Positions 13,027-64,000 of a DNA stretch of 64,000 nt are shown in pieces. The notes under the pieces are model-generated. The model had not been told where the DNA came from and did not search any database. It saw only the letters and a list, made by a program, of their open reading frames with translations. How positions within the stretch are numbered: the stretch's first letter is position 1; every line of letters begins with the position of its first letter. The position numbers and the translations under genes are program-made. This DNA comes from Paraspadella gotoi (Eukaryota > Animalia > Chaetognatha): assembly GCA_051294375.1 (NCBI GenBank), contig CM119269.1, positions 16,233,010 through 16,297,009 of the forward strand, read 5' to 3'.

Positions 13027-13252
13027 TATGGCAACGGGGAGACATGTGCGATTCCCTGGCGTTCAGGGGTTTGGACGTGCAGTGACCACCCCATGTCACT
13101 GGCGTGTTTATGCCGACACCATCACACTTTAACCAGCGTGACCGTGAGGGAATTGAAGCCGGAACTCAGGGTTGGTGAACGAGCTGTCCAAACCAATGGG
13201 ACGAACTGAGTTTCACCAAACTATACGGGAGGCGAATTTCGGACTCGCCACT
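13027..13252 (-). mobile_element. Structured solo-LTR-like element, family A
   Basis: It is the reverse complement of the 30713 copy over most of its length, with a perfect 4-bp TSD ATAT. Confidence 0.8.
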
Positions 13253-28131: not shown

Positions 28132-28387
28132 TATGGCAACAGCCGGGTTGCCTGTGATGCCCATTGGGATGGGGCATCTCACTGTTGGCTTTGGGGGCTT
28201 CCGACCCTCAGTGACGCCTCCAGTCACTGCGCGGTTACCCTAGGACGGTCTCGCTTTGCCAACGCAGAGGGAAGTCGTTAGGACTGTGGATGGAACACTA
28301 CGCCTGGGATGGTGTGTTCCCCCTCTGAGCCAAATGGATTTGGCTGACTGATGGTGGACGTGAGCGGTTTGTGAATATACCGCCACA
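28132..28387 (-). mobile_element. Structured solo-LTR-like element, family B
   Basis: On the minus strand it reads TGTGGCG...GTTGCCATA, with a perfect 4-bp TSD CACT and multiple hairpins. It is homologous to 43850-44091. Confidence 0.8.
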
Positions 28388-29486: not shown

Positions 29487-30404
29487 AACGATCAGATTCG
29501 ACAGATTCCACACTTTAAAAAGTTAGTCAATTTTACCGCCTGTGGAACTGAAATAATCTTTTTTTTCCTGATGCATCGTAATAGTGATATCTTTTTTTCG
29601 GGTGTAGATGTTAACGAAACTTCGTAATTATTGTCGTCGTGAACTTTCCGATCATCAGATAAGCAAACAACTATGTACCTTGTATATACAAATATGTAGA
29701 ATCGTGAAATAATAAAAATTTTCAAATTAAAAACCAGCCAGCCATGAACAAAAAAAAATCGAAACGATAGATTGGAAAAGGTTTAAACCAGAATGGAAAG
29801 CAAGGAACGGATAATTTAATTGTTTCTCAAGAAGTGTGTCACAATTTTGTTCGACAAAGAGGCGTAACGATAAGAAATCTCAAAAACCGTTACAATTTTG
29901 GGACAAAAAGGTTCGATCTCTCTCGTCCAAAAGTCGTCTCGTCGGTTCGAAGTTTTTTCGGTCGCGAGTCCGATCGAAAGTCCCTTAAGGTTGTCAGGTT
30001 CAGTTGTTAAAAACAATAGTAATCACAAAGGGTATTTATTTTATTGAAGATTTATTGACATCTAAAAACTTAAAGGAGAACCAGGCGTGCTGCAAAGATT
30101 AGTAATCATTGAATACGGCTGCGTTAGTTTTTAGTTTTTGCCTTAATTTGAGTGAGGGCGTCAGAAATGCTAACATTACAAAAATAAAGTTTAAAGGACA
30201 AGAAAAAAGGGAAAGATCATTGGTGAGCCCGACTTCCGAACACAACAGAAACACAACACTTTCAGGTGACATGCCTCAACCTGGCGATGCACTTTCCGCC
30301 AACAACACATCAGGCGACATGCCTCAACTTGGTGACGAACTTTCCACCAACAACAACAATTCACGGAAGAGACGCAAAAGACTTCTCCCTACGGGAGGGG
30401 GGGA

Positions 30405-30615
30405 TGTATGGTGGACTAAAATCCACCAACCGTTCATCAGCGGCCATTGATGCCAGAGGCAAGTCATTCGCCTCCCAACCCAAAGGTCCGGGGTTCTAGC
30501 CCGGTGGTCGCCTAGCAGTTAAGAGGGACGGGGCGCTTAACCCGCCTGTAACACGGTGTTACAGCCTGATCCAAAGCTCAGGGACTGCAAATATTGAACG
30601 GTTCTGTCACTAACA
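30405..30615 (+). mobile_element. Short LTR (TGT...ACA) containing a 73-nt tRNA-like module and preceded by a polypurine tract
   Basis: PPT GGGAGGGGGGGA (30393-30404) abuts TGTATGG. There is a 5' hairpin TGGTGGA/TCCACCA and an enclosing stem AACCGTTCA/TGAACGGTT, and the unit ends GTCACTAACA. A second copy starts at about 63962. Confidence 0.7.
30440..30512 (+). other. tRNA-Gly(CCC)-like pseudo-tRNA inside the LTR
   Basis: It has a 7-bp acceptor GCGGCCA/TGGTCGC, a D-loop AGAGG, a loop CT-CCC-AA with a broken anticodon stem, and a T arm CCGGG-GTTCTAG-CCCGG, over 73 nt. Confidence 0.7.
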
Positions 30616-30712
30616 CATAACAATAATTACTGTCTCTTCAAACTTAAAAAATGTTGTTTGGTGAAAATTGAATAAAGAAATATTTGATTGTTCTGATAAA
30701 AAGCATATATAG

Positions 30713-30936
30713 TGTGGCGAATCCTAAATTCGCCCCCCTATTGCTTGGTGAAACTCAGCTCGTCCCATTGGCTTGGACAGCTCAGTACTCGTTCACCAAC
30801 CGTGAGTTCCGAGTTCAATTCCTTCACGGTCATGCTGGTTAAAGTGTGATGGTGTCGGCAGGTCCAAAGCCCTGAGCGCCAGCTGTCGGGAGATGCCTCA
30901 CACCCCAGGCATCTCTCATGTCCCTTCGTTGCCATA
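30713..30936 (+). mobile_element. Structured solo-LTR-like element, family A
   Basis: Ends are TGTGGCG...GTTGCCATA with flanks ATAG/ATAA. A B-box-like GAGTTCAATTCC lies at 30811-30822. It is homologous to 13027-13252. Confidence 0.75.
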
Positions 30937-41738: not shown

Positions 41739-43330
41739 AAGGCAAGAGAAGAAAAAACACCAGAGGTAAGAAAACAAGAGAAGAAATTAAATACAATTTC
41801 CCTTATTGAGTTTTCATTCTATTTCTGACAAGAAACGGGAGAGAAAGGCAGTAAAGGCTTGACGGAAAACCACGAAGAAGAAGGTACATGTCTAATTGTC
41901 TATGCTTGTTGGTGATGTTGTTTTAATAGATAAATTATGATTAAAACCACTGGTCATTCTATTCAAAAAAAAGGTATATAGTTTTTACCTAGATGGAGAG
42001 AGCCAACTCGGCTGCAAGTACAAACAGTTCTTAATTGTATATTGTTTTAATTTTATCACTTCCTTCCTCAAATGACCTGATCATTTTAACCCCGTTTCCC
42101 TCCTTCGACTCTAAGCCAATCGAGGCAGTGGGAGAAAACTCTTTTTCCCGGCCAACTCCTCGGAAAACTACTGCCCAAGAAGGAGGAAAAGAAGCCGCCT
42201 TGTCCTCTTTGTCCCATAATCGAAAGCTATCCAACCGCAATCTTGCTGCCCCATGCTGTCGCTCCTTGCCCGCTCCTTGTCCTTCCCCTTGTCCTCCCCA
42301 CCCTCCCCTCTTGTTTCAGCAAAGTGTCCGCCACCTTGTCCTCCGCATGTATCCTCCCGCACAATGTCCTCCGCCATGTCCTGCCCCTTGCCCCACACCA
42401 TGTCCCTACTCCTTGCATAACCCATGTCCTCCTCCTTGTCCTTCTCCTTGTCCCTCCTCCTGTCCGCTCCCCTTGCCCGCCTCCTTTTCCGCGTCCCTTG
42501 CCACCGCCTGTGTCCACCTAAGTGCCCCACGTTGCCCTCCCCAAGCTCCTCCATGTCCAGCGCCACCAGCCAAGCAACGTGGCTATAATCTCTTTCTGAC
42601 GCCTCCTTGTCCCGTCGCCTTGCGACGAATGCGGCAACAACAGCAGTAAGAACGTCACCAACAACAACGCTACCGGCTGCTGCAGCGAGGGAACGAACAA
42701 CGCCAAGTCTGGTCGCTGTATGACGACTCAGTTGGCGAATAACATGACGGGCGGATGCTGCAACGGCCCCGACTGCTCGACGAGGGCAAAACAGATCCAT
42801 GTGGTTGAAGTAGGTGAGGAAATGGACAAGTCCGACCAAGTTCGTCCAAGTCCGACCAAGTTCGACCAGAAGAACACAAACGCCAACTGTAACGACGACG
42901 ACGACGACGTTACTAACAAAACTTCGAACTCGGCGAACTTCTATGAAAAAGCGGAGAGCGGGAAAGAAGAGAGCCGCGGCAGTAGCGCTGAAATCGACGA
43001 AAACGCTGCCGACAATGAGAATGCCCACAACTCGAATGAGGAAAACGAAAGGTAATTTGATTTACTGTTTTGAAATCGAGGATTGATTGATTGATTTTTT
43101 GGGGGTCACAAATCAATAGAATGATTTGTGGCAGTAACCACAGATTTTTGGTTTTCTGATTGATTCAATTTCCCAGGTCAAACTCCTCAAACAATGACGA
43201 CGGTGAAGAGTAAGCTTGGATCACATCCTTTACCTCCGCCTCCACCTAAGACGGCGCTGACTCTACCTCCGACGGCGCCGACTCCGCTTCCGAGGACGCC
43301 GCCTACACCTCGAACGGCGCCGATCCGCAT
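41739..43330 (+). pseudogene. Degenerate tandem paralog of the CPPP-repeat gene (exons 1-4 plus an exon-6-like piece)
   Basis: The exon order matches. Exon 1-like sequence ends at 41765 with ATG replaced by AAG. Exon 2 (41833-41883) ETGEKGSKGLTENHEEE aligns with EKGKSGSKVMSDNQGDE, IEAVGENS aligns with MDAIGQDS, and there is a frameshifted CPPP array at 42250-42640. NNAKSG.CMTT.L..NMTGGCCNGP.CSTRA is shared. The exon near 43177 reads SNSSNNDDG then stops. It could be partly a low-quality consensus rather than a true pseudogene. Confidence 0.7.
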
Positions 43331-43849: not shown

Positions 43850-44091
43850 CATGGCAACAGCCGGGTTGCCTGTGATGCCCATTTGGATGTTGGCTTTGGG
43901 GGTTTCCGACCCTCAGTGACGCCTCCTGTCACTGGCGCGGTTACCATAGGACGGTCTCGCATTGCCAACGCGGAGGGAAGTCGATATGACTGTCACAGTC
44001 ATAACGTCACTGTGGAACGCAACGCCGGGGATGGTCCGTTCCCCCTCTGAAATCGATGGCTGACGTGAGGCGCTGTGAATATATCGCCACA
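43850..44091 (-). mobile_element. Structured solo-LTR-like element, family B
   Basis: It is highly similar to 28132-28387 and has a perfect 4-bp TSD ATTA. Confidence 0.8.
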
Positions 44092-45056: not shown

Positions 45057-49303
<4,247 letters not shown>

Positions 49304-58036: not shown

Positions 58037-58945
58037 TCATTTGAAATAAAATCGTTGTCGAATTAAAATTCAAACTCTACTAATTATTACCCATTAAAGT
58101 TAAACTACCTTTGATAAACTTTTCTCGTTAATTAGGTAAACTCTCGCTTATGAACTACCGCTTCGCCGTTTTAAGGTGAAAAATAAGGCAAGTCTCATTA
58201 ATCCGAACCGTGCATTTTTATCGAAATTTCATATGTGGGAACTGGGAAATCGGAGGTCATACAAACTCAGGCTGAGAGTGAAAAGCTTAACTGGTTTATC
58301 TTTTGTTTATTATATCTTTACGCCGTGACTCTACTGAGCTCCAGAATAGATTTTAAAAACAAAAGGCAATTGATTTCCCATTTAATTTTAACTATTTCCA
58401 TACTGACCATAACATGAGAAACAACATTTAAGGAGGATTTATCATAATGTAAAACAAAACATTCCAAAGTAATTTAAAACCGTAGTGTTAAAAAAAAAAA
58501 TTTGTCTAAAACGCATAATATTGTTTATGAAAAAAATACATTAAATTAAGAACTGAGCGTGAGCAACGCCCTCATTAGCTAAGGTTTATTTAATTAAATT
58601 CATTATTATGTCAGGCCAATAAGCTAAAAACAATTCCAAGAATCTTGATCAAAAAGTAAGTAAATTTCGCTCTCGTTTTTTTTCCCCAATAATTTTTCAT
58701 GCAAATTAAACATTCTAAGCTACTTTTTGTTTTTATAACATAACTGTTGACCATTAGCAGACTTTACAAGTCAAAATCTCAGCGGTCGTGCCACAAAGAG
58801 TAATTAGAGAAAAGTAATGTAAACATTTGAGAGACACAAATATTTAAAAAAACGTTTCCATTATACTTCGCATATGAATTTCGAATATTATGTTGCTTTC
58901 GAAAATTTGACTAAAAGCAGTAAACGGTCCCCATTAACCACCTGT

Positions 58946-62875
<3,930 letters not shown>

Positions 62876-63961
62876 GGCAGCTTTTTATCAGCCTTCGAAA
62901 AGTGCGCTGAGAGGTTCGAAAGGGTAAGGAAAAAAAAATATTAGTTTAGATTAGTTTAGTCGAAAAAAAAATCCAGGGGAGACTGAAAAAGAGAATTTTG
63001 AGTTTCTCTGCAGTACTTTTATGGTTTTGACTATATTAATTTATATAAACATAAGAAGGTAATTATAAGCAAAGAGATGATCCAGCTTAACAAAACGGAA
63101 AATTTTTTTAAAACAAATTATTTCAAATAAAGATTAACTCTGATACATAATCATTATCATTATTACCTCTGATTTAAATGAAAACCATATTGTTACCTCG
63201 ATCTAATTTTTGCCATAAATTTTGTTTCAAATGGATTAAAAAAAAATGTTTTCCCCCGTTTCCAACCGCCGTTTTTTCTCTCTTTGTATACTTTTAAACG
63301 AGGATAAATTAAGCTCCAGAGCGAAAAAGTTTTAAAGAATTAAACCGTGGTTTTGGTATCTGTACTTTTATTAAGTATCTTCTACATTCAATTTAGAAAT
63401 AAGTACAAAGAAAGCAGTTCGATAAAGTTTTTTTTCCGGTTCTAAATGAAAGGACAACATGAGGGAATTTGGAAACTAAACTAGTATCTATTACGTAATC
63501 AATTGCCGCGTTTGAATGTATTATTATTATTAATATTATAATATTATTATAATTAATTTGTTAGGACCCGCCGGTCCGTCCTCCTCCTAAAACGCCCCCG
63601 AGAATATTCGAAGAATATTTGAGGAAACTCCTCCACCCCGGCGAGATGCTTCGGTAGTCCAGAGATTCTTCAAAGGCATGATTTGGTGGCTTGAGCAGAT
63701 CGACGATTAAATAGTCTCTCTTTATTTCATGAAAAGTTTAAAAAGGGTACCTTAATAAAATAATCAAAGCATATAGATATTCAAACAGTACAATAAAGAA
63801 TAATTATTAAAATTATTATTTAAACACACAAAAGAATTACAAAAATCAGTTTAAACTCAAAAACCAATTGATAATCCTTTTGACGAAGTAAAGTTCGAAC
63901 TCAGATATCACGATTCGCGAGTCTTTGGATCTAACAGATTGATTGATTTATTATTATTCCA

Positions 63962-64000
63962 GGTATGGTGACTAAAATCCACCAACCGTTCATCAGCGGC
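63962..64000 (+). mobile_element. Start of a second copy of the tRNA-bearing LTR, truncated by the window edge
   Basis: GTATGGTGACTAAAATCCACCAACCGTTCATCAGCGGC is nearly identical to 30406-30444. No PPT lies upstream, so it is a 5' or solo LTR. Confidence 0.8.

Follow-up and report, generated by a model that had tools for sequence, protein, structure and literature searches.

Comparison with known systems

A tRNA-like segment inside a long terminal repeat (LTR) is a design that, taken alone, is already known from Helenus, a group of TRIMs (terminal-repeat retrotransposons in miniature) for which the type TRIMp3 was proposed (Kojima 2024, PMC10886601). Here, an element of comparable design was analyzed in a stretch of 64,000 nucleotides from the chaetognath Paraspadella gotoi (contig CM119269.1, positions 16,233,010 to 16,297,009 of the forward strand). 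The whole of this 64-kb stretch is termed the window, and all coordinates refer to it. The element has a 234-bp LTR at 30407-30640. In common with Helenus, it is short and non-coding, possesses a primer-binding site (PBS) of the Gypsy type and a polypurine tract (PPT), carries in its LTR a tRNA-like segment that probably does not function as a tRNA, and displays an excess of solo LTRs (PMC10886601). Its inferred length of 655 bp falls within the 311-1263 bp given for Helenus, and its TA...CA ends are found also in Helenus-1_MeDo, Helenus-3_MeDo and Helenus-3_TheEle (PMC10886601). Use of RNA polymerase III (Pol III) is likewise unvalidated in Helenus. The difference lies in a twister-type fold that follows the tRNA-like segment in the 234-bp LTR family; the word twister does not occur in the available portions of PMC10886601, in which retrozymes are named only as a separate group. 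With its PBS, PPT, tRNA-like LTR and lack of coding sequence, the element is best filed with Helenus, the two-LTR form and the length of the target duplication being indirect. As to the undescribed family of the original prediction, two motifs searched gave 0 hits in the data file of PMC10886601, so that no Helenus consensus there is matched by them.

Two Helenus elements of Synergus gall wasps, Helenus-2_SyJa and Helenus-2_SyUm (PMC10886601), share the tRNA-Trp primer site (13/14) and the order of a tRNA-like segment and then an apparent ribozyme in the LTR. In these, however, the motif resembles a type III hammerhead (CTGATGA...GAAAC, three helices; a reading by eye that is not noted in the available text of PMC10886601), the internal parts are of ~480 bp instead of 187 bp, and no sequence likeness was noted.

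LTR retrozymes of plants (Cervera 2016, PMC4918200) also carry one ribozyme per LTR along with PBS and PPT, are non-coding, are flanked by 4-bp duplications and rely on a Gypsy helper. Their RNA runs from cut to cut without an R region and is circularised, the circles being demonstrated in plants and predicted here. Unlike the present element, they have a hammerhead of type III, use a tRNA-Met primer, and have LTRs that measure ~350 bp and circles that measure 600-1000 nt (PMC4918200), and no tRNA-type promoter is described for them in the portions of PMC7761336 at hand. The element may work like an LTR retrozyme without being a member of that class as defined, since its motif is twister-like and not a hammerhead. 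Metazoan non-LTR retrozymes and the promoter-plus-hammerhead short interspersed nuclear elements (SINEs) of Schistosoma (PMC7229834, PMC6765202, 10.64898/2026.07.22.740005) are likewise small repeats of animals that contain a self-cleaving ribozyme, in some cases one that requires dimers, and the Schistosoma SINEs couple promoter and ribozyme. They differ in having a type I hammerhead, tandem arrays, Penelope-like or LINE (long interspersed nuclear element) helpers and no LTR, PBS or PPT. LTR retrozymes are placed primarily in plants by a 2026 preprint (10.64898/2026.07.22.740005, as far as its text was available), and no twister-bearing LTR element was found in the open-access literature, Repbase and Dfam lying outside the search.

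The explanation that we judge best, at slightly better than an even chance, is a TRIM with a tRNA-like segment as its likely promoter and a predicted self-cleaving twister-type fold, the intact copies of which would likely spread by way of a circular RNA of 421 nt that a Gypsy helper copies. It builds on LTR ends, LTR-PBS and PPT-LTR joints, a high copy number and a fold common to three families, all of which were observed.

Boundaries and organization of the element

Copies were studied in the window and in contigs from six runs publicly available for this organism (X1, X2, X5, X6, X7 and X9 among the labels). Loose ends, the points at which contigs leave the shared stretch, were counted in 24 of 752 rows. 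On the left, 156, 44 and 12 contigs of X2 ended before 30407, 30406 and 30405, respectively, compared with 98, 25 and 11 in X7 and 88, 26 and 7 in X5. Such a falling series is what chance extension produces, so that 30407 is the true start of the LTR. On the right, contigs ended behind 30640 and 30641 in numbers of 163/93, 102/59 and 82/40, with a further 29/33 in X9, and no loose ends were found at 30615 among these rows. Loose ends and depth in the six runs fix the LTR at 30407-30640 on the plus strand, 234 bp in length with TA...CA ends. The original prediction had set a 211-bp LTR with TGT...ACA termini at 30405-30615, and both of those ends were wrong. A second copy of the LTR in the window, cut by the window end, had been expected from 63962 with a different flank. 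The different flank and the likeness (38/39 letters) are real, while the copy begins at 63964 (63964-64000, plus strand), and by BLAST its match to the first copy also begins at 30406-30407.

Upstream of the LTR of the window copy lies a non-coding internal part of 187 bp (30220-30406, plus strand) that ends in the PPT. No 5' LTR was found upstream by BLAST; the TCA at 30217-30219, which repeats the final 3 nt of the LTR, is either a remnant of one or a chance match. One base past this LTR end is the tRNA-Trp-like PBS (30221-30233, plus strand). The letters at 30220-30233 agree at 13/14 positions with the start of Helenus-2_SyJa-I and Gypsy-32-I_NVi, both of which are assigned to tRNA-Trp-CCA in Fig. 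S2 of PMC10886601. Further along, the internal part holds a diverged direct repeat of ~50 bp (30262-30310 and 30312-30360), and two overlapping frames tested in it gave no Pfam match. The plus-strand segment 30366-30373 is an 8-nt complement of the LTR 3' end (30632-30639), extending to 9 nt (30365) in most copies. This pairing forms in the predicted circular fold and may join both ends of the internal domain, bringing PBS and PPT together. The PPT, which had been expected directly before the LTR, is indeed present at 30393-30404, and the loose-end series leaves a 2-nt spacer, TG (30405-30406), between it and the LTR on the same strand. An 8-bp hairpin is predicted within 30385-30403, in which the PPT pairs with a pyrimidine run just 5' of it.

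The two joints needed for an LTR-PBS-internal-PPT-LTR order, a check that had been proposed earlier, were both recovered. The joint from LTR end to PBS side, 30637 to 30217 with a spacing of 421, occurred in 10, 8, 5 and 0 contigs of X2, X1, X6 and X9, respectively, which is three of the four runs, and in X1, X6 and X9 the sequence at the loose ends before 30217 is that of the LTR 3' end. The joint from PPT to LTR is present in the window itself. The complete order, LTR, PBS, 187-bp internal part, PPT and LTR, amounts to 655 bp by inference, the window copy having one LTR; the part of the check that did not succeed was the search for a listed contig spanning the whole. On the basis of the primer site, the 187-bp internal part and the LTR-end-to-PBS joints, the window copy represents a TRIM of the Helenus kind that has lost its 5' LTR. 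The earlier reading as an LTR retroelement whose LTR contains a tRNA-derived segment, similar to Helenus and not a SINE, was supported by sharp ends, both joints and the absence of a tail.

Summed contig depth in X2 was 93 in the left flank, 0.17-0.66 million in 30217-30405 and 1.2-2.4 million in the LTR; a sum of ~10^4 times the flank is no copy number, and the safe floor for copies is the more than 200 distinct flanks found at each LTR end in X2 alone. LTR depth was ~4 to 11 times the internal depth, and many copies are without an internal part. In X9, a run whose RNA nature is only guessed, the ratio of LTR to internal depth was ~9, within the DNA range of ~4-11. Taken together, the element is almost certainly a TRIM, that is, a non-coding miniature LTR retrotransposon present in high copy. 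Collections of metagenomes, viruses and prokaryote genomes contained 0 matches to an exact 20-mer from the LTR, and a distant BLAST search against phages was likewise without a match.

The window copy differs from most copies at LTR positions 30450, 30455, 30573, 30589 and 30590, two of which lie in the A box and one (30573) in pseudoknot T1 of the twister-type fold. With this decay at A-box and T1 positions and the missing 5' LTR, the copy is 5'-truncated and decayed, and it is probably dead. Its one-LTR shape starting at the PBS is compatible with a single lap of a circle, with failure of the second strand transfer and with deletion at a later time.

Twister-type fold in the LTR

The most telling part of the LTR is a 74-nt permuted twister-like fold at 30515-30588 on the plus strand, which was absent from the original prediction, as were the primer site and the internal part. 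It was delineated by a covariance model, a structural descriptor and a pair list. According to the pair list, P5 (30515-30520/30583-30588) encloses P2 (30525-30526/30541-30542), the putative catalytic G30527 and A30528, pseudoknot T1 (30529-30531/30571-30573), the predicted cut at U^A (30538^30539), pseudoknot T2 (30544-30545/30576-30577), P3 (30546-30553/30557-30564) and P4 (30565-30569/30578-30582), all on the plus strand. A P1 stem is not formed; a 6-nt palindrome at 30532-30537 takes its place. The arrangement agrees with the type-P5 twister (Rfam RF02684, clan CL00120; PMC5408937), in which the order is P5-P2-GA-T1...UAA-P2-GC-P3-P4-L4 with two pseudoknots and a U^A site, and the Rfam consensus has the same layout. 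In contrast to that class, the 234-bp LTR family shows the palindrome in place of P1, a short P2, a P4 of five pairs closed by A-U and no Rfam match.

Covariance model R3, trained only on three sister LTRs of the window (F2b, F3a and F3b), matched 30514-30589 with 28.3 bits and a roughly calibrated E of 2.4e-7, the best of 20 non-training matches, the next unrelated one having E 0.031. The sequence-only model R2, run with default filters where R3 was run with filters off, did not list this fold. The structural descriptor, written post hoc after the motifs had been seen, hit the window at 4 sites, each of them in one of these LTRs, whereas 40 shuffled windows gave 0 hits. Among the three F2/F3 training copies, 5/26 pairs were changed on both sides, two of these in T1 (a result reached in 2/500 shuffles), with the two-sided changes coming from two lineages only.

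Conservation within the 234-bp LTR family points in the same direction. The core is kept, namely G30527, A30528, U30538-A30539-A30540 and the L4 pattern U-NNN-AAGC. Pseudoknot T2 has 2/2 pairs; T1 has 2/3 in the window copy owing to the mismatch at 30573 and 3/3 in most copies, the pair at 30573 being kept in 87-97% of contig depth. Thirteen sites were polymorphic at 6% or more in X2, of which the 74-nt fold has two, both located at the tip of P3 and one of them in the outermost P3 pair; the depletion has P ~0.008 at a cut-off chosen post hoc. No indels in P2 reached 2% among the copies. Furthermore, a self-complementary P1 recurs in all three families with different sequences (6/6, 8/8 and 8/8 pairs, and 6/8 in the decayed F3b), and the 6-nt palindrome has a predicted self-duplex energy of -8.3 kcal/mol. 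The stretch 30515-30588 is very probably a twister-derived fold, and active cleavage in the 234-bp LTR family is somewhat more likely than not.

Sister LTR families

Two further families in the window, F2 and F3, carry the fold. F2 is represented by a solo LTR at 30713-30936 on the plus strand, with ~30 nt deleted from the fold, flanks ATAG/ATAA and an R3 match of E 0.0014, and by a solo LTR at 13027-13252 on the minus strand, in which the fold is full-length and decayed and the 4-bp duplication is ATAT. F3 is represented by two solo LTRs on the minus strand, both with the fold, at 28132-28387 (F3a; duplication AGTG) and at 43850-44091 (duplication TAAT). The 4-bp duplications are thus exact in 3/4 sister LTR copies and agree at 3/4 letters in the fourth. 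Both families end in TG...TA, F2 with a B-box-like motif and F3 with an A-box-like motif. The longest plus-strand BLAST match between F2/F3 and the 234-bp LTR family is 11 nt, yet the fold is the same. In total, six LTR copies of three twister-fold families are located in the 64 kb. P2 has 4/4 pairs in F2 and 3/4 in F3. A scan of 101 nt of F3a gave twister-P1 as its sole Rfam match, with 14 bits and E 1.3, far under the gathering score.

A 16-mer of the F2 loop occurs at 3 viral loci, one of which (1/3) has a weak Twister-P5 match. This match, at 151-202 on the minus strand of L003, a 4.5-kb IMG/VR contig, scores 18.8 bits with E 0.29 and is probably due to chance, coming from the 16-mer by which the contig was fetched. 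In X2, X1 and X6, a single contig per run links the LTR end of the main element to the start of the neighboring F2 LTR and skips 71 nt of the interval 30641-30713, which reflects either an allele at the same locus or another locus with adjacent insertions.

tRNA-like segment

Upstream of the fold in the same LTR lies a degenerate tRNA-like segment (30440-30512, plus strand) with an acceptor stem, an A-box-like motif at 30448-30459 and a B-box-like motif at 30492-30502. The acceptor and T arms had been described as intact. The acceptor stem proved to be so (7 bp, 30440-30446/30505-30511); the T arm does form a 5-bp hairpin, its TTC lying one base off the tRNA register. The anticodon stem is broken as foreseen, with 1/5 pairs, and the D stem has a pair probability of ~0.02. 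The 73-nt fold alone is within chance (z -0.74, 46/200 shuffles), and the pattern of acceptor plus T arm, which occurs in 107/200 shuffled windows, is not specific. The suggested check of the segment with a tRNA finder and Infernal turned out negative: ARAGORN reported 0 tRNA genes and Rfam no tRNA match at E<=10. A functional tRNA or tRNA mimic was rejected on these grounds together with the fold statistics, and the mimic put forward in the original prediction is improbable, as no cloverleaf is formed.

A tRNA origin is indicated by the order and spacing of the boxes within the acceptor stem, in which the A-box-like and the GGTTC B-box-like motifs lie 44 nt apart inside the 7-bp helix, and by the motif CGCCTCCCA, which is found at the same place in fish Helenus; its 7 occurrences in the Helenus data file (PMC10886601) all belong to fish Helenus LTRs, directly 5' of the B box. 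Segment 30440-30512 is likely a Pol III promoter.

The 211-nt stretch 30405-30615 folds better than shuffled sequences (z -2.75, 1/200). Folding also places a 9-bp clasp helix around both the tRNA-like segment and the twister-type fold (30428-30603, plus strand), pairing 30428-30436 with 30595-30603. This clasp was correctly foreseen, with 9/9 Watson-Crick pairs and pair probabilities of 0.81-1.0 for 8/9 of them. At the clasp pair 30432/30599 both partners vary (7.6%/3.6% in X2 and 1.0-1.8% in the other three runs); these changes, both of CpG type, would be compensatory if linked.

Proposed route and alternative explanations

In the preferred explanation, transcription by Pol III would begin in the tRNA-like segment that lies within the 5' LTR and would read through. 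Once the second LTR had been made, the palindromes of both LTRs would pair and the ribozyme halves would swap, each swapped active site drawing its catalytic G and its U^A bond from different LTRs. Both ribozymes would then cut at U^A (30538^30539) and free a 421-nt RNA. As this RNA would lack a terminal repeat, the usual first strand transfer would be impossible. Its ends would instead be kept together by P5 along with the 9-bp clasp, and a host ligase of the RtcB type would join them. The reverse transcriptase of the Gypsy helper would prime on tRNA-Trp, run round the circle and rebuild two LTRs, following which the copy would be inserted by the helper integrase under formation of a 4-bp duplication. 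For LTR elements without an R region, the circle model is that of plant retrozymes (PMC4918200), while dimer-dependent hammerheads and RtcB ligation are described in animal retrozymes (PMC7229834). The circle route may be regarded as evenly balanced.

A more specific form of this explanation is tentative, and we hold it to be possible more than probable: the twisters, being without P1, would be able to cut only on transcription of both LTRs, in the form of a domain-swapped pair, the ends of the 421-nt RNA would be clasped for ligation, and the monomer circle would refold to an off-state hairpin. The Pol III-driven TRIM would then be an animal LTR retrozyme of a new make, the gall-wasp Helenus-2 would be its hammerhead counterpart, and both would belong to a class of Pol III TRIMs with ribozymes that recurs in animals and has been overlooked.

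A number of results weigh against the preferred explanation, partly in the fold itself. P2 is short, with 3 nt on the 5' strand and two Watson-Crick pairs plus A-C, where the criteria of the review PMC5408937, which were applied here, give four base pairs in the twister consensus and warn that the active site may be disrupted if the length of P2 changes. P4 is closed by A30569-U30578, changed on both sides, in place of the G-C pair that is called 'essentially invariant' in twisters (PMC5408937) and that is present in F2 and F3. Rfam detected no twister in the 234-bp LTR at E<=10, nor a hammerhead match. Moreover, folding of the monomer favors a rival hairpin at -28.9 kcal/mol against -21.2 kcal/mol for the pseudoknot-free twister skeleton, and the hairpin buries T1 and P2, the probability of P2 being 0. 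Owing to the short P2, the A-U closing pair, the missing Rfam match and the rival hairpin, the motif is labeled here a twister-type fold and not a proven member of the class. The hairpin could stop the monomer circle from being cut again, or could mean that the ribozyme is dead. In other twisters P1 is dispensable for cleavage (PMC5408937), so that the pairing of two copies may be unneeded.

The remaining points on that side concern the unit and its movement. The circular fold of the unit reached only z -1.8 (60 shuffles). A run of four T is absent from this strand of the unit, which is not significant, as 60% of shuffles also lack one; selection against Pol III terminators was rejected as evidence for the same reason. 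No LTR-internal-LTR arrangement was present in any one contig among those listed, and the 48 open reading frames of the window included no helper element. A 4-bp target duplication was not seen directly for the 234-bp LTR family: nested insertions in the joint tables (15 of the 72 joints listed) gave none, while the left-flank consensus ends in ATAT in 4/6 runs and the right flank reads A-TAT in 5/6, with an agreement of 0.41-0.47, which is suggestive of an ATAT-like site of 4 bp.

The alternative that survives best is an ordinary Helenus-type TRIM with a dead twister relic, in which a linear Pol III RNA with a terminal repeat would undergo the standard strand transfers and the fold would be ancestral or a scaffold only. 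The short P2, the A-U in place of the near-invariant G-C, the rival hairpin and the lack of an Rfam twister match would all be in keeping with a relic, and most Helenus families in the available portions of the supplement (PMC10886601) show no such motif by eye. On the other hand, the G-A, U-A-A, T1, T2 and L4 pattern is kept, changes between families are compensated, common variants avoid the core and the palindrome recurs in three sequences. This alternative is considered unlikely.

A rather improbable second alternative grants an active twister and gives it the role of forming an end of a linear RNA template, a cut in the 3' LTR (or in trans) replacing the Pol III terminator or trimming read-through transcripts. 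The absence of a four-T terminator in the unit would suit this role, twisters without P1 still cut (PMC5408937), and twister variants process the 5' ends of Perere-3 RNAs in S. mansoni (PMC8501958). Against it, the same ribozyme is located in both LTRs, so that the 5' copy should cut as well and remove the repeat needed for strand transfer, and the palindrome would appear to favor a paired double cut.

A tRNA-derived SINE has its 5' end at the tRNA head, a repeat tail and a variable 3' end. An ordinary SINE that came to lie behind a purine tract by chance was largely refuted here and is very improbable, since, despite an A/B-box-like head followed by a structured body and the many copies without an internal part, the ends are fixed at 30407 and 30640, copies do not start at the tRNA head with simple-repeat tails, as the original prediction had allowed for, but sharply 33 nt earlier, the 3' end at CA is equally sharp and without a tail, the LTR end joins the primer site, and the sister families have 4-bp duplications.

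Other features of the window

The window is rich in AG microsatellites. A spliced gene for a CYP4-type cytochrome P450 occupies ~58900-62900 on the minus strand, its four closest relatives having 57-62% identity and proteins of named animals ~50% or less, and the gene lies ~1.1 kb from the start of the second LTR copy, which is upstream of it. Two related Gly/Gln-rich low-complexity frames with GGGQ repeats lie on the minus strand at 45600-46460 and 42170-42800; both are apparently frameshifted, and neither gave a Pfam match. A 600-bp inverted repeat pair of 79% identity (8031-8623/9111-9703) is possibly a non-autonomous DNA transposon. A 1.8-kb tandem duplication of 86% identity (34927-36722/36874-38677) is split by a 25-N gap and may be an assembly artefact.

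Biological significance

Twister ribozymes are widespread, and few of them have been assigned functions. The only twister function found in print, in the accessible part of PMC8501958, concerns non-LTR elements of Schistosoma. If the fold described here cuts, the circle route of LTR plus ribozyme would reach animals, the class of ribozyme would be interchangeable, and Pol III would supply the missing promoter. The family would also allow an obligate-dimer twister, and the ability of a 3-nt P2 strand to work, to be tested in a natural setting. Furthermore, an abundant non-polyadenylated circular RNA of ~421 nt would be predicted, of a kind missed by standard RNA-seq and by Rfam.

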